A stretch of 63,672 nucleotides of DNA, counting the filler, from Nemertoderma westbladi (taxonomy: Eukaryota; Animalia; Xenacoelomorpha): assembly GCA_032718475.1 (NCBI GenBank). It is 3 parts of 3 records of this genome, joined end to end, with 100 filler letters (N's around TTAATTAATTAA, not from the genome) between each part and the next. Parts side by side here need not be neighbours in the genome. Positions count along the whole stretch, not along the records: positions 27,785 to 51,598 come from JAUCBJ010007686.1; 2 more parts are not named here. One strand, given 5' to 3'. A program made the position numbers and the translations under genes. Below the pieces are notes generated by a model. It searched no databases. It saw only the letters and a list, made by a program, of their open reading frames with translations, and had not been told where the DNA came from. This document shows, piece after piece, positions 5,437 to 60,715 of this stretch. Within the stretch, counting starts at the first letter, position 1, and each line of letters opens with the position of its first letter.

Positions 5437-6001
5437 AACTGCAAAAGTTTGTTCCTAAAGTACTTTAAACCGTAACAACCAAGGTAATTTGAAATAGTTT
5501 TTAATGGACAGATACTAACTTATGATATTAAATATCTTTAAAATTTATTTTTAAACTTTACAAGTATGAAAATAATTCGCTTACAAAATTGCAGCCAATT
5601 CGTGTCAGTTTGCCATCAGTATGCGTACTGAGAAAGGAAAACAAACTAACACTCTTACAGACACATTTACTTATATTTAAATTCTTCATTAATTATTTTT
5701 AAAAATAATATTTGCGTCATAAGTGTCGTACGTGGAATTGAAGTTAATGCTAATAATATATATACCAAACAGCAAATAATATAATTTAATATAGTTTTAA
5801 TTTTTTTTTTTTTTTATTTTATTTTTTTTTTATTTATTGTATATAGTTTTAAATAAAAATAAACGAGATTAATATTATAAAAGTTTAAATAATGCTAAGG
5901 CTTGTTTATTTTTTCATATTTATATATTTTGTAATAGACAGGAATCTGAATTATATATCATATATATTATTATCATTAATTTATATGTGGGGGTACAAAA
6001 T

Positions 6002-27684: not shown

Positions 27685-27784
27685 NNNNNNNNNNNNNNNN
27701 NNNNNNNNNNNNNNNNNNNNNNNNNNNNTTAATTAATTAANNNNNNNNNNNNNNNNNNNNNNNNNNNNNNNNNNNNNNNNNNNN
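27685..27784. other. Assembly gap/contig linker
   Basis: N-run with a central TTAATTAATTAA. Confidence 0.98.
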
Positions 27785-30007
27785 TTTTTGAGTATTTACT
27801 AATTTATCGCGCTCTAGCGCGATACTTTGCTGCACTTCTTGCAACTCTAGTCTACTTTCCCTTACTGTGCCCTTGAATTGCTGGACAGTCTCCTGCAACT
27901 GTCCGAGCAGGATATCCATCCCCCGCCGTCTCTCGTCCACCCATTCGACCGCCGAAGCGGGAGTCGCCAACGTTGTAGCGGGCGGACGAGGGACAACGGG
28001 CGCCAAATTGTGAATATTTCGCTCGGGGTCCAGGACCTGAACTGTCTCTCGGGCAGTTCTACGGGGCACAGGTAGCTTAGTGCTATGTAGAGGGAATTTA
28101 TAGGTAGTCTCAGGGAGCACAGGTATGTCTATCACCGAAGGGGTGATTTCAAGAACAGGCCTAATTATTTCAGGCTCATCTACTATAGTAGGGAGTCTTT
28201 CTATTTTAATTATTTGGTCTGTGGGCTCTGTACTACCTAATTTGGTGTTATTTATTTGCCTTCTAACAGCTGGAGGCAAATCAGGCAATTTCTGCCGGTG
28301 GAATGTTCTTTTACGTCTGCTTAGGCGAGATCGATTTCCTCCGCCTTCGGTGTCGGTGGTATCGCCTTCCTCAGATGATGTATACCCCTGTCTCTTGGGA
28401 GTAGATCGACTCATCATCTGCATATTGCTCGCTGTTAACTGTTTATTGAAGTTGTCTTGCCTCTCTTGAAGATTTTCCAACTCTAGTTGGGTTGCCTCTT
28501 CAGATGCCCTCCGTTCTGCTTCTGCCACTGCCTCTACCGCCTTTCTTTCAGCTGCTGCTTCTGCCAAGGTCGCCTTTGCTTCTGCTGCTGCCTCTGCCGC
28601 CTTTGCCTCTGCCGCTGCCTCTGCCGCCTTTGCCTCTGCCGCTGCCGCTGCCGCTTTTGCTTCTGCTGCTGCCTCTGCCGCCTTTGCCTCTGCCGCTGCC
28701 GCTGCCGCTTTTGCCTCTGATGCTGCCTCTGCCGCCTTTGCCTCTGCCGCTGCCGCTGCCGCTTTTGCCTCTGCTGCTGCCTCTGCCGCTGCCAATTTTC
28801 TTTCTGCTTCTGCAGCTACCACTGCTGCTTTCTTTCTGTCTTCTATACGTTTTTTCTTTACTTGTTCTTCTTGGACTCGTGTCAGGCGGAGTTGTTCATC
28901 GAATTTAGCTTGGTTCGCCGCTAACCTATCCACATCAATTGCATCCAACACACGCTGGGCTCCTTCACTATTAGGGCTAAGTCCCTCTAGCCTTCTCCTC
29001 AACTCTTCATCTCCCACGAAACGCTGATAGTCTGACAGATAGATGTCAATGGCATCCCTCTTATGCGGTTTCTCTGCCGTCGCTTCACTTTCCACTTGGG
29101 AAAAAGTAGCGTCTGTTGATTCTCCATGGGTTGAGCGCTCCTCCAACTGAGCTTTCCACTGAGCTGCTCCTTGAACCTGGCGACTCACCCGTTGGAACCA
29201 AGTCTTTACGGCAACTTGCAACGACGTGTCTTGTTTTCTTTTAGAAGCCTCCTCAAAGGCGGATAAGATTAGCCTAATCCGCAGAACTCTTTCTCTAACT
29301 TGATAAAGCAGCGATCCCTGCTCTTGAGGTCCTTGAGGTTGTTTAAACAGTTGTCTTTCTACTCGCTCCATAGAGCTGAAGAATCCCTGGGCGTATCCGG
29401 CTGCGGACCTCTTCCATACAGCTGGATCGATGGTTTCCTTGGCTACTCCCATCCGGTGTATGTCTTCCCAGGCAGCTTCTGATAAATCAAACGGGAGTCC
29501 GGGTCCGGGGAAGTTCCATTGCGACTCGACAATAGACTTCAGTTCTTCACTAGTGTAGCCCGCGTAGCTATCTCTAGTTGACCGTTGACTTCTCGCCCAA
29601 TCGATCTGGTGTTCTTCCACCGCGATCAATAACCCAGCGAGCACGGCTGCAGGAAGGATGAGAAGGGGATCCGTATAAACCGCATCCGTCATCTCTGCTC
29701 CGCTCTCGGGTGTCAGCTCTACAGTATCCTCACTACTGGAGCTGCTGGGCCGCTGAGGAATAAGTTCTTGACTAGCGGGTTGTTGCTGTTCCGCTGCCTT
29801 TTGGTCCCGCTTGATCTGAGCTCGAGTGCCTATGATAGACCTACGATGTTGGACCAGCCTAGGTTCTGTTATTACTACTGGAGGGATGACCTTCCTCACA
29901 GTGGGAGGTGAACTGGATTTACGACCAGACGTTTGTACGTCTCTATCTGAGTCGCAGATAGTTACATCTAATAAACTGTCTGACAGGTTCTGCTTAGTAT
30001 CAGACAT
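27785..30007 (-). CDS. Long intronless ORF (>740 aa, runs into the gap) with an Ala/Glu/Lys coiled-coil repeat; probable retroelement gag/ORF1-like protein of unknown family
   Basis: Uninterrupted 2.2-kb ORF, GC-richer than the flanks, with AEAKAAEAAAEAKA repeats and predicted coiled coils. No recognisable catalytic motif in the visible part. Confidence 0.55.
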
Positions 30008-31378
30008 GACTATGTATACCGTTGAATGTCTACTGCTGTATTACAGTCTGAGTAAGTCTAGTAACTCAGTATTACCTGCTAGCCTAGTAATTAATTACCG
30101 TTACTGCTACTCAGTGTAGCGTGATATATATATAATATATTAGAATACCGGTATACTTATAGTATATATAACTATATAAGTATTATTACAGACTAGGTTT
30201 ATCACAGAATACCGGTATAATTTTAGCACAAATATATAAATATATAATAGGCCTATCGGAATACCGGTATACAGCTTACAGTTTGTAGGATATATAATTC
30301 TGAAATAGAATTAATTACAAGTACCGGTATAATTTCAGCCTAGATTTATAGAAATAAAGATAATAGGCCTATCGTAAATACCGGTATATCAATTATTTTA
30401 AATAATTGAATTTCTGAATTTTAGGGTTACTTGGTTACTTTACTTACTTTATTACCGTTATTTGAGCAGTAATCCAACTGATATTGAGACCTAATGGTTG
30501 TATGGTAGGCCTACGATTTATAAATCGTTAGATTTGATTTATAATATATATATACCCGTTTTAATGGGTTTTGTCAATGTTTGAAATAAATGTTATTATT
30601 TCTGGGGTAATCACTACACAAAGCGGTGCGCTTTCAATGAAGTGTTACGTATAGGACACTAAAACAAATAATTCTAATTTACCTAAGTTACTTAATACTA
30701 CAAATTACGTACAATTCGGGTGAGATTACAATCTCTAAATAAATGCAAAAATTTACAAAAACGCAAATACGAATTTTTAGGGTAATTTTACAAGAAGTCT
30801 ACAAACCAGCCTAACAAAGGGTTAGAAAACTGATTATTACAGGGGACAGGGTACTACGGTATTTGAAATAATAAGTAGTAGTAAATACACTGCGTTGTCT
30901 AGATAGGAAAATACCACCGCCTGACGACCTATAGCCGTATCGCTATAGGTTCTACGTTATGTATCACGGAGTGTTCCTACCTAGAAGTTAATAGAGCTAA
31001 TCGAATGTGCCTATCAACCACTTTACAACACAAATATAATGCCTACAATAATTACTTCGGAAAGTACCGTACACTAAACCCTAAATTAGGTACGAGTACT
31101 TGTACAACAGATAATCTGTAGTTAAATATACTTGAACAGCTAAAAGAACCACGGCATCTGCTGGAGTGACCGATGCACAAAATCACCAGTCTTTACCTAC
31201 GCCGAGCAGCCCGTGTAGTACCGGGGTTAATTTAACTATAGCGGTATGTATAACAAACACAATTACTGTAGGAACAAACTTAGGGACTTGAATGTTGCGA
31301 ATAATCGCATAAACTCTGAATAATAAATATTACGCTACGCGTACAAACTACTCAAACAAAATACAGACCGAACACTGA

Positions 31379-32659: not shown

Positions 32660-34476
32660 GGATCATTATACCAAGACTTGGTGGTTGAGAATCATGGGAT
32701 CATTATACCAATACTTGGTGGTTGAGAATCATGGGATCATTATACCAAGACTTGGGGGCTGAGAATCATGGGATCATTATACCAAGACTTGGGGGCTGAG
32801 AATCATGGGATCATTACCTAGACTTGGTGGAAGAGAATCATGGGATCATTATACCTAGACTTGGGGGCTGAGAATCATGGGATCATTATACCAAGACTTG
32901 GGGGCTGAGAATCATGGGATCATTATACCTAGACTTGGGGGCTAAGAATCATGGGATCATTATACCAAGACTTGGTGGCTGAGAATCATGGGATCATTAC
33001 CTAGACTTGGTGGCTGAGAATTATGGGATCATTATACCAAGACTTGGGGGCTGAGAATCATGGGATCATTATACCTAGACTTGGGGGCTAAGAATCATGG
33101 GATCATTATACCAAGACTTGGTGGCTGAGAATCATGGGATCATTATACCAAGACTTGGGGGCTGAGAATCATGGGATCATTATACCAAGACTTGGGGGCT
33201 GAGAATCATGGGATCATTATACCTAGACTTGGGGGCTAAGAATCATGGGATCATTATACCAAGACTTGGTGGCTGAGAATCATGGGATCATTACCTAGAC
33301 TTGGTGGCTGAGAATTATGGGATCATTATACCAAGACTTGCGGGCTGAGAATCATGGGATCATTATACCAAGACTTGGTGGTTGAGAATCATGGGATCAT
33401 TATACCAATACTTGGTGGTTGAGAATCATGGGATCATTATACCAAGACTTGGGGGCTGAGAATCATGGGATCATTATACCAAGACTTGGGGGCTGAGAAT
33501 CATGGGATCATTACCTAGACTTGGTGGCTGAGAATCATGGGATCATTATACCAAGACTTGGGGGCTGAGAATCATGGGATCATTATACCAAGACTTGGTG
33601 GCTGAGAATCATGGAATCATTATACCAAGACTTGGTGGCTGAGAATCATGGGATCATTATACCAAGACTTGGGGGCTGAGAATCATGGGATCATTACCTA
33701 GACTTGGGGGCTGAGAATCATGGGATCATTACCAAGACTTGGTGGCTGAGAATCATGGGATCATTATACCAAGACTTGGCGGCTGAGAATCATGGGATCA
33801 TTATACCAAGACTTGGGGGCTGAGACTCATGGGATCATTATACCTAGACTTGGGGGCTAAGAATCATGGGATCATTATACCAAGACTTGGTGGCTGAGAA
33901 TCATGGGATCATTACCTAGACTTGGTGGCTGAGAATCATGGGATCATTATACCAAGACTTGGGGGCTGAGAATCATGGGATCATTATACCAAGACTTGGT
34001 GGCTGAGAATCATGGGATCATTATACCAAGACTTGCGGGCTGAGAATCATGGGATCATTACCTAGACTTGGTGGCTGAGAATCATGGGATCATTATACCA
34101 AGACTTGGTGGCTGAGAATCATGGGATCATTATACCAAGACTTGGGGGCTAAGAATCATGGGATCATTACCAAGACTTGGTGGCTGAGAATCATGGGATC
34201 ATTATACCAAGACTTGGTGGCTGAGAATCATGGGATCATTATACCAAGACTTGGGGGCTGAGAATCATGGGATCATTATACCAAGACTTGGGGGCTGAGA
34301 ATCATGGGATCATTATACCTAGACTTGGTGGCTGAGAATCATGGGATCATTACCAAGACTTGCGGGCTGAGAATCATGGGATCATTATACCAAGACTTGG
34401 GGGCTGAGAATCATGGGATCATTACCTAGACTTGGGGGCTGAGAATCATGGGATCATTACCAAGACTTGATGGCTG
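32660..34476. repeat. 37-bp minisatellite (ggatcattataccaagacttgggggctgagaatcatg; 35-bp variants), ~50 units
   Basis: Direct reading; period 37 (32661 to 32698). Confidence 0.97.
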
Positions 34477-35875: not shown

Positions 35876-35881
35876 TCGAGC

Positions 35882-37531
35882 GTAGGGGTGGGTGCTACTC
35901 CTATTACCCGAAGATAGGGGTGGGCGCTACTCCTATCTGATACCCGAAGGTAGGGATGGGCGCTACTTCTATCTGATACGCGAAGGTAGGGGTGGGCGCT
36001 ACTCCTACCTGCTACCCGAGGGTAGGGGTGGGCGCTACTCCTATCTGCTACCCGAGGGTATAGGGGTGGGCGCTACTCGTATCTGCTACCCGAAGGTAGG
36101 GGTGGGCGCTACTCGTATCTGCTACCCGAGGGTATAGGGGTGGGCGCTACTCGTATCTGCTACCCGAAGGTAGGGGTGGGCGCTACTCGTATCTGCTACC
36201 CGAGGGTATAGGGGTGGGCGCTACTCGTATCTGCTACCCGAGGGTATAGGGGTGGGCGCTACTCGTATCTGCTACCCGAGGGTATAGGGGTGGGCGCTAC
36301 TCGTATCTGCTACCCGAGGGTATAGGGGTGGGCGCTACTCGTATCTGCTACCCGAGGGTAGGGAGGGGTGGGCGCTACTCGTATCTGCTACCCGAGGGTA
36401 TAGGGGTGGGCGCTACTCGTATCTGCTACCCGAGGGTATAGGGGTGGGCGCTACTCCTACCTGCTACCCGAGGGTAGGGGTGGGCGCTACTCCTACCTGC
36501 TACCCGAGGGTAGGGGTGGGCGCTACTCCTACCTGCTACCCGAGGGTATAGGGGTGGGCGCTACTCGTATCTGCTACCCGAGGGTAGGGAGGGGTGGGCG
36601 CTACTCGTATCTGCTACCCGAGGGTATAGGGGTGGGCGCTACTCGTATCTGCTACCCGAGGGTATAGGGGTGGGCGCTACTCTTACCTGCTACCCGAGGG
36701 TAGGGGTGGGCGCTACTCCTACCTGCTACCCGAGGGTAGGGGTGGGCGCTACTCCTACCTGCTACCCGAGGGTAGGGGTGGGCGCTACTCCTACTACCCG
36801 AAGGTAGGGGTGGGCGCTACACCTATCTGCTACCCGAGGGTAGGGGTGGGCGCTACTCCTACCTGCTACCCGAGGGTAGGGGTGGGCGCTACTCCTACTA
36901 CCCGAAGGTAGGGGTGGGCGCTACACCTATCTGCTACCCGAGGGTAGGGGTGGGCGCTACTCCTACCTGCTACCCGAGGGTAGGGGTGGGCGCTACTCCT
37001 ACTACCCGAAGGTAGGGGTGGGCGCTACACCTATCTGCTACCCGAGAGGAGGGGTGGGCGCTACTCCTACCTGCTACCCGAGGGTAGGGGTGGGCGCTAC
37101 TCCTACTACCCGAAGGTAGGGGTGGGCGCTACACCTATCTGCTACCCGAGGGTAGGGGTGGGCGCTACTCCTATCTGCTACCCGAGGGTAGGGGTGGGCT
37201 CTACTCCTATCTGCTACCCGAGGGTAGGGGTGGGCGCTACTCCTATCTGCTACCCGTAGGTAGGGGTGGGCGCTACTCCTACCTGCTACCCGAGGGTAGG
37301 GGTGGGCGCTACTCCTACCTGCTACCCGAGGGTAGGGGTGGGCGCTACTCCTACCTGCTACCCGAGGGTAGGGGTGGGCGCTACTCCTACTACCCGAAGG
37401 TAGGGGTGGGCGCTACACCTATCTGCTACCCGAGAGGAGGGGTGGGCGCTACTCCTATCTGCTACCCGAGGGTAGGGGTGGGCTCTACTCCTATCTGCTA
37501 CCCGAGGGTAGGGGTGGGCTCTACTCCTATC
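35882..37531. repeat. GC-rich 36-bp minisatellite (gtaggggtgggcgctactcctatctgctacccgagg; 32- and 38-bp variants), ~45 units
   Basis: Direct reading; period 36 (36721 to 36757). Confidence 0.97.
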
Positions 37532-38579: not shown

Positions 38580-39727
38580 TAATAATAGGCCCTATCATCT
38601 ATTAAACATACTAAACAAATTTGTATCTGTTTATAAATCACATCGCATTAGCTGGGGATTTCAACTGCCGTTTAGACTCCGGAAATCGTGGATCAGAACT
38701 TATAGAAAGTTTAAACAGCCTTGGTTTCAACCTCATTGAATTTGAGTCACCTGGAATCCCTACGTATATATCACCCTAGGGCAAAAGCGTCATTGACTTG
38801 ATTTTCGCGAAATACTATGGTATAATAACAAGAGCTCTGCCAAGAGTTACGATAACGCCCACGCCGCAACGCAAACACCAACGTTTGTCTACCATTCTCA
38901 AGATAAACAGTGTGACACCAGAATATATGACAAGATAATATATGACATATATTATCTCGCAAAATAAACATTGACACATTACAATCGCATCCACAACTTC
39001 CTGATCTATTAAACGTATTTCAGAACAAGACTGATATTAACGTTGCGGAGACCTTGCTGACAACAATTATAAAGGAATCTACAATTCCTAAACCAATCAA
39101 ACGGTTTCGGGGAAAACCATGGTTCGACGACGAGTGTAGATCCGCGAAGTCGCAGGTTATGGACGCTCTGAGATTGAGAACGACCGATACAACAAACCGC
39201 CTTCATTACTGGGCTATTAGGAAAGAGTATAAGAAGTTACTGAAAGCGAAGAAGGAATCGTATGAGGAGGAGATCGTACTGAAACGGGTAGCTGATGCTG
39301 AGATCGACCCTTGGTCTCTTTTTAAGGACCGGAAGCCGCCGACCGTGGCACTGATTGGAGTCGACCGTCTAGGCGAACATTTCCAGGCTCTATTGGGAAC
39401 TGAAAACAATCCACACGAAAGCCCAGTCGTACCGAGCACATCTCCGGAGGAGCGCGAAGCGCCTGAGTGGTATAATGAACCAGTCACTGAGGAGGAGATC
39501 TATCTAGCAGCTCGAAATGCATCCAACAAGAAGGCCAGTGGCCCCGACGGTTTATTTTATGAACACATTAAGCAATCACTTCCTTTTCTCGCGGTTTTTA
39601 TTATGATGTTATTTAACTTTTGTTTAAACGTGGGATCTATACCAGTATCGTGGTCTCACAGTTTTATCAAAATCTTATATAAAGGAATGGGTGCGTTAAA
39701 TAACCCAGATAATTATCGTGGGATAGC
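38580..39727 (+). mobile_element. Non-LTR retrotransposon, 5' half (APE endonuclease remnant and start of RT)
   Basis: IALAGDFNCR and PTYISP*GKSVIDLIF (38640-38810). ORF 39054 has KPWFDDEC, KKASGPDG and NPDNYRGIA, cut at the transposon insertion. Confidence 0.88.
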
Positions 39728-39804
39728 TACGGTGGCTGAAAGCGGCCAAAATAATTCACTACTTTTTTAATTTTTAATTTGATCAACATTTTTTTCTTGA
39801 ATTT

Positions 39805-40260
39805 CAACCCGGGTTGAAATTAATATCAACCCGGGTTGAAATTAATATCAACCCGGGTTGAAATTAATATCAACCCGGGTTGAAATTAATATCAACCCGG
39901 GTTGAAATTAATATCAACCCGGGTTGAAATTAATATCAACCCGGGTTGAAATTAATATCAACCCGGGTTGAAATTAATATCAACCCGGGTTGAAATTAAT
40001 ATCAACCCGGGTTGAAATTAATATCAACCCGGGTTGAAATTAATATCAACCCGGGTTGAAATTAATATCAACCCGGGTTGAAATTAATATCAACCCGGGT
40101 TGAAATTAATATCAACCCGGGTTGAAATTAATATCAACCCGGGTTGAAATTAATATCAACCCGGGTTGAAATTAATATCAACCCGGGTTGAAATTAATAT
40201 CAACCCGGGTTGAAATTAATATCAACCCGGGTTGAAATTAATATCAACCCAGGTTGAAAT
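39805..40260 (+). repeat. Left subterminal array: 21 x 22-bp caacccgggttgaaattaatat
   Basis: First unit at 39805, last (variant cccagg) at 40245; period 22. Confidence 0.97.
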
Positions 40261-40488
40261 TGAATTATTCGTACCGGTACTGTAGAATGTAATACTGTAA
40301 TATGAGGTAATGTCATGTTGTAGGAGTAGGAGTAGAGCTGTAGTCTGCAGTCTGTAGAGGCAGAGACTGAGAGAGGCTGAGAGGTTGGCTTATCACAGTA
40401 TCAGTGCAGTACTGCAGTACCAGTGACGGTGCTACGGTGCTTGGTCAGTTCCAGTTGGTAACCTAATTCTGTAATTCACGATCTAAAA

Positions 40489-43400
40489 ATGAGTAGGCCC
40501 AGTCCTAATAGTAGGCCTAGTGTTACTGGTGAATTAGGACTACCGGCACCATTGCCTATTACTCACGAACGACGACGGTTATTATCGGAGTTAAGAAGTT
40601 ACATAAACCTTGGTGTTGAAGACATTAATCGTGTCACTGGTCGGAGCGACGGCGTTACCTGTAGGCTTACTAGCGGCACATCTAGAATGGTTACCGGTAC
40701 CGGTACTGAAAGTGAAACGGCTTCTGATTCCGGCGATTCATCGGATAATGATTTTCGAGATGAGACAACGCGTTTGCGTCGGATACCTTCGACTACCGAT
40801 ACTGATAGGCTTCACCTTCCCTCACGCTCGTCCTCAAGTCATTTGCGCAACTCTCGTAGATTTTCGCGCGCGAAGAATAGGCCTCTGATAGCAGGATAGG
40901 GAGCCTAGGTAAAGTTGGTCGGCCTTCTCAATCGACTAAAGTTGTTATCGTTAAACTTAAAGTTCGTTACATTAATTCCACGAATGCAGATAGCATCACC
41001 ATTAGAAAGCCCTTGGGTGAGAGTAATTCTTTGAAGATGAGTCTACCAATGGATGCGAACTTATCGGTCGTTAAAAAGTTGATTCTCAATAAAATATTTA
41101 TTGAAGAGCATAACCGTTGTTTGAGGGAGCAAGGATTTCCCTCAAACCGTAATTCTTATTCGTTTCAATTAACTAACTTACAAGGCGAGAAACTTAAGCC
41201 AAAGTTTTGTTCCCTTCGACAGTATACATTGGAGCGGTGTGTTTTAGGATCCTTAAAAATCGCTGTTGTTGGAGAGTTGCCCGAAGAGGATACCGGTAAT
41301 GAGTTGGAGAACGATTCAACACTACCAGCCATTGCCGAATGTGACACGGTTCCACCCTCGCCAGGCGATGAAGGTGCCAGTACCAATGACGTGGTTCTAC
41401 CTCCGACACCTGTTGGTATACTCAGTGTCGGTAATGGCGTGGCTGCACTTCCGCCAGCCCCAGCCCTTGATGGTACTGACGCGGTTCTACTTCCGCCAAA
41501 CGTCGGTGAACTCGGTTCCTTCTGTGACATGGAACCGCTTCCACCAGCCTCCTCCGGTAATGATGTAGTTCCTGTTCTGCCTCCTCCTTTAATCGATGAC
41601 CAAGTATATCAAGACACCAGTACCGATATACGTCAGGAATCCGTGTATGAAGTTCTGTCCCGTTTGGAGTGCAAAGTGGGTCTTTGCAACAAGGTAAACA
41701 TCGTTAATGTTGACGACCGAGACAATGTACTTGATTGTGGATACCGGGCTTTTTCAAGAAAGGGATTCAACATATGGGAACCTTTATCTGTTAAATTCAT
41801 TGGGGAGCGAGGCATAGATGCTGGAGGACCTTCGCGCGAATTCATGCGGTTAACATTACAAGCGATCAGGGATTCTGCGTTATTCAGCGGCGAGGAAAAT
41901 TCCAAGAACATCGAACTGGATTACAACAGTAAGTTGCATCAAATAATCTTATGCTGTTTAAATAAATTTAATTAAACTTCTTAATTTAACTGAACCAAAT
42001 ATAATTATATTTTTATAATATTTAATTATTATATTTTATTTTTCAGGTCTAAACTTAAACAGGTATTACCTGGCGGGAAAGATGATAGGTTACTTCATCA
42101 TACACCGAGGTTCGACTCCTAGTTTCCTATCCCCATTATTGTATAACATAATTAGTATAACCGATGGATTTATTTCCGCCACCCCGGCAGTGACTGATAT
42201 AGCTGATTATGAACTACGGGACAAAGTTAATAAAGTGAGATATAGATAATTATTTATTTAATAATATAACATAAATATTAAATAAACTAATTAAATAACT
42301 ATTATATTTCGGTTAGGCCTATACAAAATATTGTTAACCATAACTTTACTTTAGATAAGTTCTGCAGAAACATCCGGAGAATTCAACACTGCAATAGACG
42401 AGGCTACTGATCTGATATCTATGAGTGGTTGTTTCAATATAACTATCCATGGCTTCAGCGACCAAACGAAAATAGATCTTGTTGGAGCTTTGGCTAAATT
42501 CATTGTGATGGATAGAAATCGTCGTGCCATTGAACAGTAAGTTAATCATTAGTATAGTTAATTATCATAATCGCTCAATTAGTCAATATTAATTTCAGGA
42601 ACTTTTTACAATTAATTTTAAACTAAACAGTCAAGTGCACTTTAGATTCCAGGATGGTCTAAAAGAAGTTGGATTAATTAACGAAATTCTAAGAAATCCC
42701 GATGGTTGGCGGGAATTCTTTGTGCATAACGAATGTGTACTTACCTCCAAAGCTGTACAAGATTTGTTTATAATACAATGGACAGAGAACAACAATAGTA
42801 TTCGGAAGAGAAAGGAGAAACGTGTTGCAGCATATTGGCTGGATCTGTTGCAGGATTTGGGAGGTATTTTAAATTTTTTATTCAAAATTGAATAAAAAAT
42901 GAAAATCACCACCAATCAAATAATTGATAAACTGTTAATTAATTTATAAATCGATTACTTGCTTAATAATTAATATGTTTCTTTCTCCTTAATTCATATA
43001 TTTCTTGATTATTAATGAATGTATTGATTATTGATTAATCTGTTTATTTTTCTTTGAAATTTGTTTAACTGTTGTTTAATAATTATGTGTTGCATTATTG
43101 TCCCAATAAGCCTAGGTCGCCTCGTATTTGTTTTGGTGTAAAGGTAAACTATACGCCGACAGCCTACAGCGGCCAACTAACAGCCGACAACAGTTATAAA
43201 TGTTGCTGGGTGTTAGTTGCCGGCAATCGGCGTAGCGTTTACACCCTCCCGTATCCGTTTAATCGTCCTGCAGTTTAAATTGATTTAATTAAATTTTTAT
43301 ATATTTTTAATTTTTAAATTATTGCATTTTTATTACAGACGGGGTTACAGGATATGCATCCGGGCGAGTAGTCGGGCTGAAAGACCTTCTTATATTTGTG

Positions 43401-43613
43401 ACTGGTATCGATGCTGTTCCCGCACTTGGATTTAACCGGGATCCTTCAGTTGTATTCCTCCACCCCGAGGACGATAACCAATATTACATTGGTCTACCAA
43501 GATCAAACACTTGTGGTCTCATTTTAAGTCTACCGATTGTTGGGTCCTACGACGAGTTTAAACGCAATATGATTAGCGCATTGGAGATAGCGACTACATT
43601 CACCGATGATTGA
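40489..43613 (+). CDS. HECT-domain E3 ubiquitin ligase (G2E3-like HECT) encoded by the transposon; exons 40489/40881-41928, 42047-42234, 42355-42536, 42646-42863, 43339-43613
   Basis: Four GT-AG introns with compatible phases (1,0,2,1). Motifs VKFIGERGIDAGGPSREF, YYLAGKMIG, QFQDGLKEVGL, LLIFVTGIDAVPALGF, catalytic LPRSNTC and terminal F-T-D-D-stop (-4 Phe). ORF 40489-40899 joins the main frame only through a frameshift near 40880; alternative start ATG at 41037. Confidence 0.9.
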
Positions 43614-43766
43614 ATGAAACTATAAACATTTTAGTAATTGTTTATTATATACTAGAAGTAAAATAGAAAAATTAAGAACTAAATTAGAACTATAGTCGTT
43701 TTATAGTAATAAAGAACTGTTATTCTTATAATAAAGTAAGAATTAGAAATTATATGTAAGTATGAA

Positions 43767-45023
43767 TCATAAATAGTGCATTATATTAGATATTAGAAAT
43801 AGTAATGTTTGTTTACATTCCCCTAATGATTGGCAACATCGAGGTGTCACCAGCGCAGTATCTTCAAGGAAACTGTCACATAAGTTAGCGATCTCAGGGA
43901 TACAGTGTGGCAGTTTGGTAGCGAATATTCTCATAGAGGCTAGAGATTCTATCTCCACGTGGTGGATGTAGTTAGGTGACTGTAAATAAAGTAGATTTGG
44001 CTTTCCTCCCGGGGATAATAGACCGCTACGGCGAATCCGGTGGCTATTGTGATAGACCATTATTAAATCGAGAGTATACTGGAGAAACGGCAAGTAAACA
44101 TATCTAACAATTTCTATATGTATAAAGTTTGAAGTATCCAAAAAGGCAAGTTCTAATTCTGCGAAATGATCTAACCAATGCGATAATCCAAGTATTGGAA
44201 TCTTGGACCAAAAAGACTCAATCCTTTGGTTCCTTGTACTTTTACCGTAGATAAACGTTGTACCGTTCAGGGCAGCATCATCATTATGATAGAGTCGAAG
44301 AAAGCGCTGGATAATTTCAATGTTGACGTTTTCTGTTCCGCGATCCGAACGTATAATATGCGGAATGCCTCGCAATAAATCGATTATTTCTAAAAAATAG
44401 GCTGCCACTACGAAAGGATCGTTATTGCTCTGACCGCATTTTAACCACATAATCTTTCTGCTAAAACCGTCCATTCCACCATGAATAGCTAAACCGAACG
44501 GTTTAAGCTTATCCCATCCGTCAATGTGGAGTAGAAAGTTTGGTCCCTTCGAAAAGTAAGTGCGACGTGTAAGTTTGTGCTTGATACGGCACAACCGCCC
44601 ATCCGGATCTAGAATACGCAGCAGTTCGGCAGTTAATTTACGCGGTACATAAATGTTATGTTGGTACATTAAAACATGTTGCATCTGCCGGTATCCAGCT
44701 GTACTTGGAGAACGATTATCACTAGAGTTTTTATGAAGTTCATTATGTATGGTATCGACTATCACACCAAAATCAGCCGGATTAAACCGTCGATGCAACT
44801 TAATTGATGATAAATAACGACGAACGGTTCTACAGGAAATGTACAAACCACAGGATTGCTGCAGTATCTGCGCTATTTCTGCATGCGTATATCCCAACCA
44901 AAAATTATCAGAAATTTCCTTCCTCCAAGGTTGCGCCGAGACTAATATTGGCAACAATATAATAATCAAAACCAGTGCAGCTACCGGTACTGATAGCGTT
45001 ACAGTAGTAACATATTTCGTCAT
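43767..45023 (-). CDS. DDE integrase-core transposase (IS3/IS481-like fold, IS3EU type), 418 aa, intact
   Basis: N-terminal HTH-like FWLGYTHAEIAQIL...ISCRTVRRYL, then GYRQM, RRTYFSKGPNFLLHIDGWDKLKPFG (D), GGMDGFSRKIMWL, IRSDRGTEN (D) and NQRIESFW (E). Confidence 0.92.
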   Translation of the reverse strand: MTKYVTTVTLSVPVAALVLIIILLPILVSAQPWRKEISDNFWLGYTHAEIAQILQQSCGLYISCRTVRRYLSSIKLHRRFNPADFGVIVDTIHNELHKNSSDNRSPSTAGYRQMQHVLMYQHNIYVPRKLTAELLRILDPDGRLCRIKHKLTRRTYFSKGPNFLLHIDGWDKLKPFGLAIHGGMDGFSRKIMWLKCGQSNNDPFVVAAYFLEIIDLLRGIPHIIRSDRGTENVNIEIIQRFLRLYHNDDAALNGTTFIYGKSTRNQRIESFWSKIPILGLSHWLDHFAELELAFLDTSNFIHIEIVRYVYLPFLQYTLDLIMVYHNSHRIRRSGLLSPGGKPNLLYLQSPNYIHHVEIESLASMRIFATKLPHCIPEIANLCDSFLEDTALVTPRCCQSLGECKQTLLFLISNIMHYL

Positions 45024-45297
45024 AATGATTTAAGCTTAAGTTTATAGCTTGTAAGTTTTGTGAAGACAGAAAGTTCCGGTCTGGTATGCAGTAGGTAAGG
45101 TACAGACAGTACCGGTCGCGGTCTGCGTCTGGTATGCAGGTTCCGATTTACACGCCGCCTTTCAGCTCTAGGTACAGTACCGGTTCGGCATGCAGGTTCC
45201 GTTTTTGATTTACACGCCGCCTTTAAGTCAGTTAGTTACATTTTAAATTTCCCTCTTCCTCATCAACATGAGTCAAATCCTCTAAAAGTCAGCTGAT

Positions 45298-45629
45298 TGA
45301 TATTAATTTCAACCCGGGTTGATATTAATTTCAACCCGGGTTGATATTAATTTCAACCCGGGTTGATATTAATTTCAACCCGGGTTGATATTAATTTCAA
45401 CCCGGGTTGATATTAATTTCAACCCGGGTTGATATTATTTTCAACCCGGGTTGATATTAATTTCAACCCGGGTTGATATTAATTTCAACCCGGGTTGATA
45501 TTAATTTCAACCCGGGTTGATATTAATTTCAACCCGGGTTGATATTAATTTCAACCCGGGTTGATATTAATTTCAACCCGGGTTGATATTAATTTCAACC
45601 CGGGTTGATATTAATTTCAACCCGGGTTG
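45298..45629 (-). repeat. Right subterminal array: 15 x 22-bp, inverted relative to the left array
   Basis: atattaatttcaacccgggttg units, cores from 45310 to 45618. Confidence 0.97.
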
Positions 45630-45706
45630 AAATTCAAGAAAAAAATGTTGATCAAATTAAAAATTAAAAAAGTAGTGAATTATTTTGGCCGCTTTCAGCC
45701 ACCGTA

Positions 45707-47060
45707 GATAGCTCTAACATCTATAATGTTGAAAAACCGCGATAATGAATAAACGTATAATTTCTAATCTAAGAGACCAGATCCCTATGGAACAATTTGG
45801 TTTTTTGCCTGGAAAGAGTGCAGTTGAAGCTATTACACAGTTACTTAGATATATCAGTGAGGCTTTTAATTCGAGTTCTAGAAATGAACGCATTGTATAT
45901 GCCTGTTTTGTAGATTTTAGAAAGGCTTTTTATTCTGTGCCCAGAGCCCTACTTCTATACAAATGTTATACATTAGGTGTCAAGGGGAAACTTTTTGATC
46001 TTATTAAGTCAATATTAAATAACAGTTTTAAAATTTTTGATGGTTGACGATTCTCAAATATCATACAACAACTTCGGGGTATTTTACAGGGCGATTGTTT
46101 ATCGCCAACATGTTTTTTACTTTTTATAGCAGATTTAGTCAGTGCTCTACGTGCAGTTGTTGCTACAATATTATCTATTTTTTATGCGGATGATTTAGTA
46201 TTCTTTTCAAAGAGTAGAGACGATATTCAGTCAGCATTGAACGCGTTATTTGAATGGTGCAGGAAAAATGGAATGGACGTGAATTTGGTGAAAACTAAAA
46301 TAGTTAAATTTCGAATAGGTGGTCGTTTAAGTACTAATGATACATTTACTTACAATGGTAATCTAGTTAAAGTAGAAAAACAATACCAATACTTAGGCGT
46401 AACAGTACAGTCGTCGTTGTGCTTTACAAACCATATCAATAGTAAAAAAGTTGAAGCTTATAAGTTAATAGGTTCTTTTACTAAGTTGCAATTACTATCT
46501 ACGGATACTGGTTTAAAGATTTTTAATGGTAAAGTGCTTCCGATGATTACTTATGGCCTACCTGCGTATGGTATCTATCTTAATTAAATTGTCAAAACTT
46601 AAAGAAATCGATAAACGAAATCTACTTTTATTAAACGTATGCTAGGTCTACACATATCTTCATCGTCAACATTAGTGCATAACTTACTTGGTGAACCAAC
46701 TTTGATAGAATATATTTTAGATAGGAACCCAAATATTTTTAACGAGACTACTGTGCTAAACTATAGGAACTATGGAGCTGTACGGATGAATAATTTTATA
46801 AGGGAGGGCTACCTAGAGGGACCTGGCTTTCAAAACTTCAACTGGAAACGACCTGGACAACGAAATCGTCATGCTGTCTGTAGGGCAACATCTCACGGGT
46901 TTCACCATCTGATCTGCTGCACTATGAACTCATTCCACTCCCCAAAAGAAGACTGTATCTGTAGTTTCTGTGGTGGGAACTGTGAAAACAGATATCACGC
47001 CCTTCGATGTCCTGCCTGTCCTAGCCTAAATTCGTTGGCTGCATGATATATATATATGTA
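45707..47060 (+). mobile_element. Non-LTR retrotransposon, 3' half (RT core and C-terminal Cys/His knuckle), degraded
   Basis: Continues IA|LTSIMLK after the TSD. EQFGFLPGKS, CFVDFRKAF, GILQGDCLSP, FYADDL, YQYLGV, CSFCGGNCENRYHALRC. Internal stops and frameshifts; (at)n tail. Confidence 0.9.
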
Positions 47061-53130: not shown

Positions 53131-53497
53131 ACTTTACTTTACTTACTTTTGGTTCCCCCAGAAAATAAAGTAAGTGAGTGAGTGTGTGAATAAGTGAGTA
53201 AAGTAAGTGAATACTATACCAGACTGCTGTAGCTACAGTACAGTATATCAATAATAATATATACAGTAGTAGATGACAGTAGTATTCCAAATTCCTTCAC
53301 TTTAAACTGCCAATCATGAGCGTTTGTTTCCGTTAATTTATGGTCCACCAAAATAATTATTCCAATGTTTAGGTTTTCTATTGACTGTCAGACTCTCAGA
53401 TTGTGTATCATGTAGGCCTATTACAGTATTACTGAACTAAATTTAAATAAGGACATGCCTAAGCCTACTCCAATGTGGCAGTAAAGACAGGAGGCAT

Positions 53498-54091
53498 ATG
53501 ATGGAGAGAACTACACCACCTTCTACCATTACAGATGAAAGTTCACCCCGGACGGCAACGGAAGATAAATCCCAACGCCTTCGTTTCCAAATAGAACTGG
53601 AATTCGTACAAACACTCGCCAACCCTCATTACCTCAACTTCCTCGCCCAGAACGGATATCTAAAACAGGAAAACTTCGTGAATTATTTGAGGTATTTGTT
53701 ATACTGGAAGGAGCCCGTGTATTCTGTTTATCTAAAGTTCCCGCAGTGTTTACACTTCTTAGAACTGCTGCAGTACGAAACATTCCGACGAGAAATAGCC
53801 AACCAGCAGTGCGTAAAGTTTATCGAGGATCAAGTTCTCTTACATTGGCAACATTACACAAAGAAACGAGTCCAACTACAGAAGTCCATGCAGCAGGCTC
53901 GAGACGTAGGTGCCACACTGGCTGCCCGAACCGACTCTACACCCCCGTCTACGGAGTCAGGCGCTCAGGAACCAACGGTTGCTAGGACACCCGTAGGTCA
54001 CGGACTAGCGGCTGGGCGTCCCAGTCCGCTCGCCGGGGACACTCAAACTGTTACTAGGCAACAGCCGCCCAACACAAAACCTTTCTATTAA
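53498..54091 (+). CDS. MED31: Mediator of RNA polymerase II transcription subunit 31 (SOH1), intronless
   Basis: RLRFQIELEFVQTLANPHYLNFLAQNGYLKQENFVNYLRYLLYWKEPVYSVYLKFPQCLHFLELLQYETFRREIAN...LHWQHYTKKR; AATAAA at ~54162. Confidence 0.97.
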   Translation: MMERTTPPSTITDESSPRTATEDKSQRLRFQIELEFVQTLANPHYLNFLAQNGYLKQENFVNYLRYLLYWKEPVYSVYLKFPQCLHFLELLQYETFRREIANQQCVKFIEDQVLLHWQHYTKKRVQLQKSMQQARDVGATLAARTDSTPPSTESGAQEPTVARTPVGHGLAAGRPSPLAGDTQTVTRQQPPNTKPFY

Positions 54092-54589
54092 CAGAACTAC
54101 CGTTAATAATTATATCGGTTTTGTTTGAAGCACAAAGTGCGTCTATATTTATCGAATTTGCAATAAATTATGTTATATTTTGTATTTTATTAATAAATTA
54201 GTTCACAAAACAAGGACACAATGTTGTTTTATTGGCAGAATCAAAATTGTCACTTAAGTGAATTAATATGTATTACTGCTAATAGTACTCAATAACGGTG
54301 ACATTCTAATGTAATATAAAGTACATTAATAATTCAACCACTTAAATAGTTTATCGAGATATTTGTAAACAAATTTGGAGTATCCTAAATGTCGTATAAA
54401 GCTTTACTTTTGATACGCAAAAAAGTATAGCCATTTCCCCAATATCTCGATATTTTTACGGAAACACTGTTTACAATAGCGCAAGTATCTCACAATTCGT
54501 TAGTCTGGTTTGATGCAAAAATAACAAATTACAACCGTTCCGATTATTTAGGTGTTCTCCCCCAGCTATATAGCTAAAACGTCAACTCT

Positions 54590-57298
54590 GGACCAAACTC
54601 CCGGTATGGCAGTTACTCGGGACCAACCTCCCGGTATGGCAGTTACTCCGGACCAACCTCCCGGTATGGCAGAGACTCGGGACCAACCTCCCGCTATGGC
54701 AGTGACTCCGGACCAACCTCCCGGTATGGCAATGACTCGGGACCAACCTCCCGGTATGGCAATGACTCGGGACCAACCTCCCGGTATGGCAGTGACTCGG
54801 GACCCACCACTGGGTATGGCAGTGAGTCCGAACCAACCTCCCGGTATGGCAATGACTCGGGACCAACCTCCCGCTATGGCAGTGACTCAGGACCCACCAC
54901 TGGGTATGGCAGTGAGTCCGGTCCAACCTCCCGGTATGACAATGACTCGGGACCAACCTCCCGGTATGGCAGAGACTCGGGACCAACCTCCCACTATGGC
55001 AGTGACTCAGGACCCACCACTGGGTATGGCAGTGAGTCCGGACCAACCTCCCGGTATGGCAATGACTCGGACCAACCTCCCGGTATGGCAGAAACTCGGG
55101 ACCAACCTCCCGCTATGGCAGTGACTCAGGACCCACCACTGGGTATGGCAGTGAGTCCGGTCCAACCTCCCGGTATGGCAATGACTCTGGACCAACCTCC
55201 CGGTATGGCAGAGACTCGGGCTCAACCTCCCGCTATGGCAGTGACTCAGGACCAACCTCCCGGTATGGCAATGAATCGGGACCAACCTCCCTGTATGGCA
55301 GAGACTCGGGACCAACCTCCCGGTATGGCAATGACTCAGGACCCACCACTGGGTATGGCAGTGAGTCCGGACCAACCTCCCGGTATGGCAATGACTCGGG
55401 ACCAACCTCCCGGTATGGCAGTGACTCTGGACCAACCTCCCGGTATGGCAATAACCCGGGACCAACCTCCCGGTATGACAATGACTCGGGACCAACCTCC
55501 CAGTATGGCAATGACTCGGGACCAACCTCCCAGTATGGCAGTGACTCGGGATCAACCTCCCTGTATGGCAATGACTCGGGACCAACCTCCCAGTATGGCA
55601 ATGACTCCGGTCCAACCTCCCGGTATGGCAGTGACTCAGGACAAATGTCCCGGATTGACAGTGACTTGGGACCAACCTCCCGGTATGGCAATGACTCGGG
55701 ACCAACCTCCCGGTATGGCAATGACTCAGGACCCACCACTGGGTATGGCAGTGAGTCCGGACCAATCTTCCGGTATGGCAATGACTCGGGACCCACACCT
55801 GGGTATGGCAGTGACTCGGGACCAACCTCCCGGTATGGCAATGACTCGGGACCAACCTCCCTGTATGACAATGACTCGGGATCAACCTCCCTGTATGGCA
55901 ATGACTCGGGACCAACCTCCCAGTATGGCAATGACTCCGGTCCAACCTCCCGGTATGGCAGTGACTCAGGACAAATGTCCCGGATTGACAGTGACTTGGG
56001 ACCAACCTCCCGGTATGGCAATGACTCGGGACCAACCTCCCAGTATGGCAATGACTCGGGACCAACCTCCCAGTATGGCAATGACTCTGGTCCAACCTCC
56101 CGGTATGGCAGTGACTCAGGACAAACCTCCCGGTATGGCAGAGACTCGGGATCAACCTCCCGGTATGGCAATGACTCGGGACCAACCTCCCAGTATGGCA
56201 GTGACTCAGGACAAACTTCCCGGTTTGACAGTGACTCAGGACCAACCTCCCGGTATGGCAGAGATTCGGGAGCAGCCTGCCGGTATGGCAGAGACTCGGG
56301 ACCAACCTCCCGGTATGACAATCACTCAGGACCAACCTCCCGGTATGGCAATCACTCCGGACCAACCACCCGGTATGGCAGTGCCTCAGGACCAATCTCC
56401 CTGTATGGCAGTGACTCCAGACCAACCTCTCGGTGTTCCAATGACTGCGGACCAACCTCCCGGTATGGCAGTGCATGCAGGACCAATCTCACGGTATGGC
56501 AGTGACTCCGGATCAACCTCCGGGTGTGGCAATGACTCGGAACCAATCTCCTGGTATTGGCAATGACTCCAGACAAACGTCCCGGAATGACAGTGACTTG
56601 GGACCAACCTCCCGGTATGGCTATGACTCCGGACCAACCTCCCGGTATGGCAATGACTCGGAACCAACCTCCCGGTATGGCAATGACTCGGAACCAACCT
56701 ACCGGTATGACAGTGACTCCGGACCAACCTCCCAGTGTGGCAGCGACTCAGGACCAACCTCCCGGTATGGCAGTGACTCGGGACCAACCTCCCGGTATGG
56801 CAGTTACACGGGAGCAACCTCCCGGTATGGCAGTGACTCCGGACCAGCCTCCCGGTATGGCAGTGACTCAGGACAAACCTCCCGGTTTGACAGTGACTCG
56901 GGACCAACCTCTCGGTATGGCAATGACTCGGGACCCACCCCTGGATATGGCAGTGACTCGGGACCAACCTCCCGGTTTGACAGTGACTCGGAACCAACCT
57001 CCCGATATGGTAGTGACTCCGGACCAACCTCCCTGTATGGCAATGACTCCGGTCCAACCTCCCTGTATGGCAGTGACTCGGGGCCAACCTCCCGGTATGG
57101 CACAGTGACGCTAGACCAACCTCCCGGTTTGACAGTGACTCGGGACCAACCTCCCGGTATGGCAGTGATTCCGGACCAAGCTCCCGGTTTGATAGTTACT
57201 CGGGACCAACCTCCCGGTATGGCAGTGACTCCGGACCAACCTCCCGGTATGGCAGTGACTCCGGACCAACCACCCAGTTTGACAGTGACTCGGGACCA
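54590..57298. repeat. 30-bp minisatellite (ggaccaacctcccggtatggcagtgactcg), ~90 units
   Basis: Direct reading; several single-base indels (~55070, 56475, 56555, 57101). Confidence 0.95.
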
Positions 57299-58605: not shown

Positions 58606-59326
58606 TGTAGGTGTCTCAGGTTGGCCTACACGGTTAATATGCATTCACATTCATTTGCCTAGGTGAAAAAGTTATTGTCGCTGGTAGCATTATCAGCAGT
58701 AACCTACAGCTGGCTGCTATCTTCACATAAAGAGCCCCCCATCCCCACTACATGCCAGACCTGCCCCACATCAGAAAAAGTACCTGGTATATAAATTTGG
58801 AAGATTTGGTGTGGTATTTCTGAATTCTCCTAGATTATGTAGGATTTACAGCCAATAATTGTTGGCGTCCTGAATGCTGAGTGCATCGACATTGTCTGTA
58901 GATCCCAAGCAGCCAAATGGGTACTGTTTTTACACAATTGGCTGAACTTTCCTTTCTAGAACTCGGTTTTGAGCTACTAAATTTATTGTTGATGTACAGT
59001 ACGTGTCATACTACATCCTCTATGTCAAATCATTTTAGACATTAGAATTCCGCTTTATTTTGCGTTCAGTAGTTCTCTGTATTTGTTCTTTATACTGAAT
59101 ATTTAATTATCCCTAATCATTTTGAGTACTAAAGCAAATATTATCATGCGAAGAGCGAAGAAAACATAAACTGTTAATATTATTACTGCCCAAAAAATAT
59201 ACTCCTATATATATCTTAGTTGTTTTGATTATTGGTATATATTTATTTGATTAATTGTACAGTAGTCCAGTAGAGACTGTGTGAACTACAAATATATTAT
59301 GTCAATTAATTAATGATAAAATAAAT

Positions 59327-60715
59327 ATGCAAAGTAGCATGTCATTTACAGTGGATGATGCAATTGAACATTTCTGTTTTGGGAAATTTCAAGTGAAACT
59401 ATCATTAGTAGTGGGCCTCATTTGGGCAGCCGGTGCTATTCCGATAATCTTGATGAGTTTTCTCGTCCCCGAATTGACGTGTGAATGGCGTCTACATGTT
59501 TGGACAGCAGCTCTCTTTGCGATTGTGGTGTTTTCCGGAATGTCTTTGGCGGCCCCGTTCTGGGGATATGTCTGCGATATCCGTGGTCGAAGAATCCAAT
59601 TACTTATTTCTTCACTTTTCTGTTTTGTTTTTAGCCTTTTAAGCGTCTTTTCTCCAAACATCTATTGGTTTTTGGTACTGAGATTTTTTGCTGCTTGCTT
59701 CGGCGGAGGCCTTCTCCAATCAGTGACTTATTATTCAGAGTTTCTTCCGATTAGATCACGTGGACGTTGCATTATATTTTTGACAGTATTTTTCACCATT
59801 GGAGCCAGTTTCACTGTGATTCTCGCTATTGTACTCGATCGGATAGGTGGATGGCGTGTTTTAGTTGCGCTTTGCAGTTTTCCTTTACTCTTGATCAACT
59901 GTTTTTGCTGTTGGCTCCCAGAAACGCCACGGTTTCTTCTTGTGTCGGGCAGGGCAGGTGAAGCTTTACAAGTTCTTTCAAGAATTGCTACTGAAAACAA
60001 AAAGGAAATGTTAGTTGGGCGACTTGTACCAGCCCCCAAAGTTCGACGTGGGAAAGTAAAAAATCTGTTTACCAAAGAATTATATCTAACAACTACATTG
60101 ACACTCTATATTTGGTGGGCACTATTCTTTAGTTACTACGGAATACTGTTGCTTTGCACTCAAATATTATTCCTTGAAGGATCAGCTCAAAGTTTTGGGA
60201 TGATAAATAACGGACCCAAGGATTCGTCAATCTGTTTTCAAAACAGTCATATTTTGGACACGTCTGACTATTTGGACATCCTTTGGACAACAACAGCGGA
60301 ATTCGTAGGAGTTTTGATGATGACTTTGTTGTTGGACCGAATTGGTCGTAAGAAAACTCTAGCTCTATTTGTTCTCATATTTTCAGTGTTCTCCGGTTTA
60401 TTAGCTGTCCGTTATTCCCGCTATTTGACGATATTCTTTATGTATGGAGCCCGAATGGCCATCTCGGCTGCCCAACAAGGTATGTACATCTACACAGTGG
60501 AGGTTTATCCTACCGTTGTAAGGGGAGTCGCATTGGGATTGGGAACTGCTATTGGTAAAGTCGGCGCGATTATGTCAGCAACTGTCGCCCAGGTTTTGGT
60601 AACTTATCATTACTATTTGGCGATCGGGATATTCGCTGGTTTGTCGTTGTTGGTTTGTATAGCGATCCTAAAATTACCTGTTGAAACTCGTAATAAAAAA
60701 CTGGCAGAAACTTAG
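59327..60715 (+). CDS. SVOP: SVOP-like (synaptic vesicle 2-related) MFS transporter, intronless, 462 aa
   Basis: FTVDDAIEHFCFGKFQVKLS, L-x-CEW, WGYVCDIRGRR, YSEFLP, WLPETPRF, DYLDILWTTTAEF, DRIGRKK, YTVEVYPTVVRG and LPVET; about 12 hydrophobic segments. Could be a divergent paralog. Confidence 0.85.
   Translation: MQSSMSFTVDDAIEHFCFGKFQVKLSLVVGLIWAAGAIPIILMSFLVPELTCEWRLHVWTAALFAIVVFSGMSLAAPFWGYVCDIRGRRIQLLISSLFCFVFSLLSVFSPNIYWFLVLRFFAACFGGGLLQSVTYYSEFLPIRSRGRCIIFLTVFFTIGASFTVILAIVLDRIGGWRVLVALCSFPLLLINCFCCWLPETPRFLLVSGRAGEALQVLSRIATENKKEMLVGRLVPAPKVRRGKVKNLFTKELYLTTTLTLYIWWALFFSYYGILLLCTQILFLEGSAQSFGMINNGPKDSSICFQNSHILDTSDYLDILWTTTAEFVGVLMMTLLLDRIGRKKTLALFVLIFSVFSGLLAVRYSRYLTIFFMYGARMAISAAQQGMYIYTVEVYPTVVRGVALGLGTAIGKVGAIMSATVAQVLVTYHYYLAIGIFAGLSLLVCIAILKLPVETRNKKLAET

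Follow-up and report, generated by a model that had tools for sequence, protein, structure and literature searches.

A predicted HECT ubiquitin ligase encoded beside the transposase of an IS3EU/GingerRoot-type element in Nemertoderma westbladi and at related loci

The genome of Nemertoderma westbladi (Xenacoelomorpha; GenBank GCA_032718475.1) harbours, within a stretch of 63,672 nt analysed here as a whole (hereafter, the window) and made of three records joined with 100-N fillers, a transposon of about 6 kb with two genes: one for a transposase and one for a HECT-type ubiquitin ligase. The element lies at 39728-45706, in the part of the window (27,785-51,598) that comes from JAUCBJ010007686.1, starts with TACGG at 39728, closes with CCGTA at 45706, and is flanked on the left (39722..39727) and on the right (45707..45712) by the target-site duplication GATAGC. 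Its terminal inverted repeats (TIRs) are composite. The left one (39728..40261, + strand) has a 72-bp tip from TACGG followed by a near-palindromic 22-bp unit repeated 21.0 times, and the right one (45297..45706, - strand) has 15.4 copies of this unit and then the 72-bp tip down to CCGTA. These units are likely binding sites for the transposase. An earlier note on this DNA had read the ends and the 6-bp duplication in the same way, and had also called the TIRs apparently identical, which needs correction: the outermost bases match at 409 of 410 positions, and the inner arrays differ in copy number.

The insertion interrupts a long interspersed nuclear element (LINE), whose second open reading frame (ORF2) is found at 38946..39727 (+) before the element and at 45707..47046 (+) after it, the latter part holding the reverse transcriptase (RT) domain (PF00078, E 2e-17) with a frameshift and a stop. 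When the element and one duplicate are deleted in silico, the RT frame is restored, NYRGIA being joined to LTSIMLK, exactly as the earlier note had described, which shows that the whole unit, HECT gene included, moved by transposition. The split LINE had further been taken as a sign of recent movement. However, this LINE is itself dead, with a frameshift a few codons beyond the rejoined site and a stop at 46045, and so it cannot date the insertion. Recency follows rather from the perfect target duplication and the near-identical ends, and the element is a complete and likely recent insertion.

The transposase gene (43767..45023, - strand) is a frame that stays open, without any stop, from 45023 to 43767, and its intactness had been rightly claimed. 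It encodes 418 aa matching Pfam rva_4 (PF24764, E 2e-29), with a helix-turn-helix (HTH) at the N-terminus, where the Pfam matches are weak, and a DDE core whose residues D168, D227 and E269 do not vary in any of the 45 sequences aligned. Residues 1-30 (44934..45023, -) form a hydrophobic, signal-peptide-like leader, and the HHCC motif is absent from the window transposase sequence. Homologues are numerous, with 431 proteins reaching E <= 1e-20 and a top match at 41%, and the named ones come from a brachiopod, wasps, bivalves, echinoderms and fish. The TAYGG..CCRTA termini with TIRs, the 6-bp duplication, the integrase-like DDE enzyme lacking HHCC and the two encoded proteins are all those of the IS3EU/GingerRoot group, and the element fits a cut-and-paste transposon of this type, in agreement with what its termini and duplication had first suggested. 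The motifs HIDGxDKLKP, DGFSRxIMWL, DxGTEN and YGKSTxNQRIE agree with those of the Repbase entries IS3EU-1_CGi, IS3EU-1_DR and IS3EU-4_CGi, a placement made by comparing motifs by eye and not from a tree with Repbase members.

The second gene converges on the transposase gene. Exon 1 is broken in this copy into a 5′ part (40489..40899), which opens with an ATG at 40489, encodes a low-complexity, Ser/Arg-rich segment and reaches a stop, and a 3′ part (40881..41928), which holds a divergent N-terminal domain (about 40920-41276), a Pro-rich repeat linker and, from about 41640, the HECT N-lobe. Exons 2 (42047..42234) and 3 (42355..42536) encode more of the N-lobe, exon 4 (42646..42863) the hinge and the start of the C-lobe, and exon 5 (43339..43613; PF00632, E 1.8e-8) the C-lobe with the catalytic Cys (codon 43512-43514), the Phe at -4 and the stop, all of them on the + strand. 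The four introns (41929-42046, 42235-42354, 42537-42645 and 42864-43338) have GT-AG ends, and the last one, which follows exon 4, has the same position and phase in two related elements (L050 and L061). The spliced model is an open frame of 636 codons that ends in PRSNTC...TFTDD and a stop, with PRSNTC at 43497-43514. It is colinear over all four junctions with the scallop protein P0163 (38% over 386 aa, 20 gap positions, E 2e-80), an alignment that, together with the PF00632 match on the last exon, indicates a full two-lobed HECT domain, typically of about 350 residues, at the C-terminus.

Thus, the convergent five-exon HECT gene with its catalytic Cys and -4 Phe, as formerly described, stands, but the gene is not intact. 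Eight extra bases (40887..40894, +) shift the frame after codon 132, and the upstream ATG opens a frame (40489-40899) that does not run in phase with that of HECT. Contigs from runs of the same species (X1-X3 and X5) were compared with the window over 40262-43200, where depth is not equivalent to copy number. The eight bases are missing from the contigs of X1 and X2, at full depth, and present in X3, on a 967-base contig without differences from the window; X5 covers 5 of the 30 bins of the compared stretch. Without these bases the gene is a single frame of 764 aa, unbroken in two of the three runs that cover the site. The product of the window copy, as predicted from its sequence, can reach at most 584 aa, from an ATG at 41037 inside the N-terminal domain. 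A small frame-repairing intron in exon 1, with 30 GT-AG candidates, was considered and dropped, since the break is accounted for by the eight bases that X1 and X2 lack. Internally deleted sister copies are also seen in runs X1-X3, with joints at 40862-41575, 40649-40692 and 42553-42646, and sister copies in the runs have also diverged from the window copy.

The association of both genes is not exclusive to this copy. Related loci were fetched by transposase alignment (the best 80 of at least 511 relatives) and searched with an iterated HECT profile, seeded with four linked ORFs in addition to the model from the window, which detected a HECT ORF at 25 of the 80. It lies downstream of the transposase and on the opposite strand in 25 out of 25 cases, and no HECT lies upstream at any of the 17 loci whose upstream sequence spans 1.5 kb or more. 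The proportion rises with the length of the downstream sequence, to 20 of 30 loci where it reaches 2 kb or more and to 15 of 18 where it reaches 3 kb or more. When transposases are clustered at 90%, a HECT is found in 23 of 75 clusters, and in 19 of the 28 that extend downstream for 2 kb or more. Pfam HECT, scanned on 24 of the HECT loci, scores above its cut-off in 15 and below it in seven, two having no match. Two relatives, L034 (55-5166) and L052 (3215-12608), are complete two-gene elements with TACGG...CCGTA ends and 6-bp duplications, and a 6-bp target duplication is also found at L009. The co-occurrence of transposase and HECT inside bounded units, a check proposed in the earlier note, is therefore observed, while the one-off capture which that note had named as a possible refutation does not hold, given the 25 loci and their fixed layout. 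The HECT gene is, judging from sequence, a standing part of this transposon lineage, and the window copy is a further member of a widespread pairing, with a frameshifted ligase of its own that limits its value. A protein kinase occupies the ligase slot at two loci (L031:2956-4352, -, Pkinase E 3e-41; L033:2674-2922, -, E 3e-11). At L028 (1807-4970), a TTAA-flanked inverted-repeat element, with ends that we take to be Kolobok- or piggyBac-like, surrounds an incomplete IS3EU transposase together with an incomplete HECT that lacks the Cys, a captured internal fragment.

The ligase also bears marks of age and selection. All but one of the 25 loci retain the catalytic Cys, as do 55 of the 59 homologous proteins with a scorable C-lobe, even though the linked ligases are deeply diverged (mean tree distance of 3.1 substitutions per site). 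For the closest measurable pair, L057 and L077, the ratio of non-synonymous to synonymous substitution rates (dN/dS) in HECT is 0.19 over 384 codons, and seven more distant pairs show proportions of non-synonymous differences (pN) of 0.24-0.44 against saturated synonymous ones (pS) of 0.72-0.83. Neutral evolution across copies, which had also been named as a way to refute the proposal, is thus not what is found between elements, where purifying selection is seen. An AlphaFold model of the HECT of L007 reached a predicted local distance difference test (pLDDT) score of 89, and the Foldseek rows listed for it are all HECT ligases. The recurrent layout, the kept Cys, the dN/dS, the shared intron and the predicted HECT fold together indicate a ligase that is old and selected in this lineage. 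On the other hand, calling it a dedicated factor, as the earlier note did, was too strong. Synonymous divergence between L057 and L077 is 0.27 in the ligase versus 1.49 in the transposase, and the ligase and transposase trees of 13 elements (near-duplicates L032 and L077 dropped; short domains, noisy trees) agree weakly (Mantel rho 0.28, p 0.045), from which it follows that ligase modules have been exchanged between transposase lineages, and kinases replace some of them.

A full HMMER search recovered 474 matches at E <= 0.001, whereas none of the 94 candidates held up when the HECT-coding stretch of exon 1 was used in a word-based search; the 13 pattern matches in viral contigs included no relatives. 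Ahead of HECT, relatives carry a SAM domain, a conserved domain named here 'FFPxG' and a UBX-like domain, the last in the linked ligases L002, L007, L010, L052 and L071 and in six further proteins. The N-terminal domain of the window ligase is at most a divergent version of 'FFPxG': in a pairwise comparison with such a domain in P0226, identity is 24% over 118 aa (E 1e-5), and our own profiles give no match. Modelled alone with AlphaFold, it shows a strand-strand-helix-strand order at a pLDDT of 39. The Atlas features pointed only to unnamed clusters.

Homologues in coral, scallop, abalone, clam and limpet are automatically named G2E3-like by NCBI, as host genes. The G2E3 zinc fingers (zf-HC5HC2H, PHD/RING-like) were detected with Pfam in none of the 38 homologues scanned nor in the frames of exon 1 of the window, and the named 'G2E3-like' proteins nest among the transposon-linked ligases in a midpoint-rooted tree that has no outgroup and includes neither genuine G2E3 nor canonical HECTs of hosts. 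Among Atlas structures, the closest homologue comes nearest to the vertebrate G2E3 cluster (template modelling score 0.88), ahead of SMURF1 and HERC4, a proximity that offers a lead for domestication. Passages of PMC3673628 describe a divergent 'GL-Metazoa' HECT family beside G2E3, treated as host genes, and those of PMC2837046 date G2E3, as a host gene, after the chordate/echinoderm split; the string 'transpos' does not occur in either. Both G2E3 and GL-Metazoa are divergent HECTs like the window ligase family, and from the description of GL-Metazoa, rather than from its member list, we infer that it may be this very family of transposon cargo. G2E3 differs in its PHD/RING fingers and in that the mammalian HECT is described as non-functional, whereas the IS3EU-linked ligases lack the fingers and keep the catalytic Cys. 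Canonical HECT E3s (the NEDD4 family, E6AP, HUWE1 and AREL1) have in common with them the two-lobed fold, the PxxxTC catalytic loop and the C-terminal Phe, but identity is 15-20% and the transposon-encoded ligases have no WW, C2 or RCC1 domains. Two oddities concern the same family: a grouper gene model (P0272) joins CARD and caspase domains to its HECT, either as a mis-joined model or as a real fusion, and one Atlas cluster links Neuralized with it.

The two-gene layout of these transposons was already in print. Passages of PMC10045372 and PMC12730594 define the IS3EU/GingerRoot termini as TA..TA (TAYGG..CCRTA), those of PMC8232023 and PMC10853768 state, citing Kojima 2019, that IS3EU encodes two proteins, and passages of PMC11934779 call the structure and function of IS3EU largely unexplored; the passages of PMC13343696, PMC5753468 and bioRxiv 2021.09.26.461848 say nothing about a second gene. 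Described elements have the same ends, a 6-bp duplication, an integrase-like DDE domain without HHCC and two genes, whereas the window element departs from them in its TIRs, which are based on a 22-bp array and span 410-534 bp compared with 100-150 bp in GingerRoot, in the hydrophobic leader of its transposase and in having HECT as the second gene. The closest precedent comes from fungi, where passages of PMC12730594 report IS3EU elements with an alpha-kinase opposite the transposase and a TET/JBP gene proposed to counter silencing. Termini, duplication length, a protein-modifying enzyme opposite the transposase and the exchange of accessory genes are common to both cases, but the fungal accessory is an alpha-kinase or a dioxygenase, in place of the HECT ligase found here or the Ser/Thr-type kinase of L031 and L033. 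The word HECT is absent from these main texts on IS3EU/GingerRoot, and the literature searched yielded no report of a HECT ligase in connection with IS3EU, Repbase and Kojima 2019, which may name the second protein, lying outside that search.

What would such a ligase do for a transposon? By the established chemistry of DDE enzymes, the transposase would excise and insert the unit, with a 6-bp stagger that the duplication shows. The ligase would take ubiquitin from a host E2 enzyme onto its conserved Cys, and its variable N-terminal part (SAM, 'FFPxG' or UBX in relatives, a divergent 'FFPxG'-type domain here) would choose the substrate, which, where UBX is present, would pass to p97/VCP. We favour as substrate a host protein that restrains the element, possibly a silencing, repair or quality-control factor, with a confidence that stands midway between belief and doubt; the exchange of ligase modules, together with the kinases in the same slot in the animals studied here and in fungi (passages of PMC12730594), is what places a host substrate first. 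Several observations weigh against this explanation. An element can do without a ligase in cis, since 10 of the 30 loci that extend 2 kb or more downstream have no HECT. They include the complete elements L009, a short relative of L052, and L069, in which part of the N-terminal domain of the ligase survives, as well as the kinase-bearing L031. The ligase of the window matches neither SAM nor UBX, either in Pfam or in our own profiles, and it is frameshifted in an element that moved or persisted regardless. This copy, because of its frameshift, would make a shortened enzyme or depend on sister copies. The weak agreement between trees is still positive, and the 13 short-domain trees are noisy. 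Within the species, the coding differences are 16 non-synonymous and 6 synonymous (22 among the 40 of 97 rows listed), a roughly neutral ratio, and one variant abolishes a splice acceptor; these differences, mostly from deleted copies, reflect decay and not selection.

A possible, although not probable, alternative is that the ligase acts on its own transposase, either ubiquitinating the post-integration complex, with UBX recruiting p97 for its removal from DNA, or limiting the level of the enzyme. There is a bacterial model for such a step, as ClpX pulls the phage Mu transposase off DNA. The UBX-like domain in five linked ligases and six further proteins, the constant two-gene layout and the positive tree correlation speak for it, and the 15-21 putative binding sites per end suggest a large, stable complex. 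Nevertheless, a specific enzyme-substrate pair should resist exchange, and these ligase modules cross distant transposase lineages and are substituted by kinases. UBX domains that bind p97 typically have an FPR loop, which the aligned UBX-like domains do not conserve, and the window copy has no UBX. A predicted complex of the L007 transposase and HECT scored 0.00 twice, in runs computed without alignments and with controls not folded, and yields no verdict either way.

The leader of the transposase raises another explanation, which we regard as unlikely: that the enzyme enters or anchors in the endoplasmic reticulum (ER) or nuclear envelope through a signal peptide, and that the ligase and p97 release or clear it from there. 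A Met-led hydrophobic leader precedes the HTH in 24 of 75 locus transposases compared with 132 of 1135 control ORF ends, 20 of these 24 have no later Met, and the window transposase has none between leader start and HTH. The pyrimidine share of the leaders is high only at codon position 2 (0.54/0.85/0.59), many of them lack a splice acceptor at the junction, and leader and UBX are found together in L002, L007, L010 and L052. This co-occurrence, however, belongs to one clade, with no independent events. In the other transposase clade, the elements with a ligase are mostly leaderless (L034, L046, L058), the kinase-bearing L031 and L033 have the leader, and the window copy has it without UBX. Besides, a TTAG inside the window's leader could be a splice acceptor. 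The leader is seen in the window, L002, L004-L010, L014-L016 and others; coral-type elements have a conserved VLPxYxP right after it, the point at which leaderless relatives begin (MPLPxYxP), and the differences between the leaders of L005 and L015 are synonymous and conservative.

That the ligase is a captured host G2E3-like gene hitch-hiking as passive cargo, in the manner of gene fragments in Pack-MULE or in the clubmoss GingerRoot elements described in passages of PMC6839031, would suit the NCBI names, the frameshift and the neutral-looking variants within the species, but it is very improbable and already largely refuted by the position and orientation fixed in 25 of 25 loci, the Cys and dN/dS kept through deep divergence, the common intron position and phase, and the nesting of finger-less 'G2E3-like' proteins among linked ligases. 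Roles of the ligase beyond those named take the remainder of our confidence.

A broader view, which we consider doubtful at present, is that the 'G2E3-like' HECT genes annotated in fish, corals, molluscs and annelids belong for the most part to IS3EU as its second gene, which would be a mobile ubiquitin-p97 module made of SAM, a beta-grasp-like domain, UBX and HECT that would disarm host control or free an ER-routed transposase, and that the HECT of G2E3 was domesticated from it. Were a catalytic HECT ligase the usual second gene of this superfamily, the second protein of IS3EU elements in animals, long without explanation, would have a name, many of the 'G2E3-like' genes in HECT surveys of invertebrates and fish would be transposon cargo, and an origin would be offered for the chordate-restricted HECT of an essential vertebrate gene, G2E3. 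It would also provide a compact and testable system, with two genes in 6 kb, for the use of host ubiquitin by a transposon; with so small an element, and an unbroken form in other runs, the family is convenient as a bench model.

The rest of the window is a repeat-rich animal region, with several LINE fragments and five long minisatellite arrays at 13099-17560, 18301-22467, 32660-34476, 35877-37531 and 54585-57298 (periods of 33, 30, 37, 36 and 30, respectively). A 767-codon open frame at 27737-30040 (-), with an Ala/Glu-rich repeat and no Pfam match, ends at an assembly gap and might be, as a guess, a gag-like or ORF1-like gene. Among the recognisable genes, a ligand-gated ion channel subunit at 5873-7576 (+) has its entire extracellular domain in one open frame (PF02931), and two intronless genes encode MED31 (53447-54091, +; PF05669) and a major facilitator superfamily transporter (59285-60715, +).

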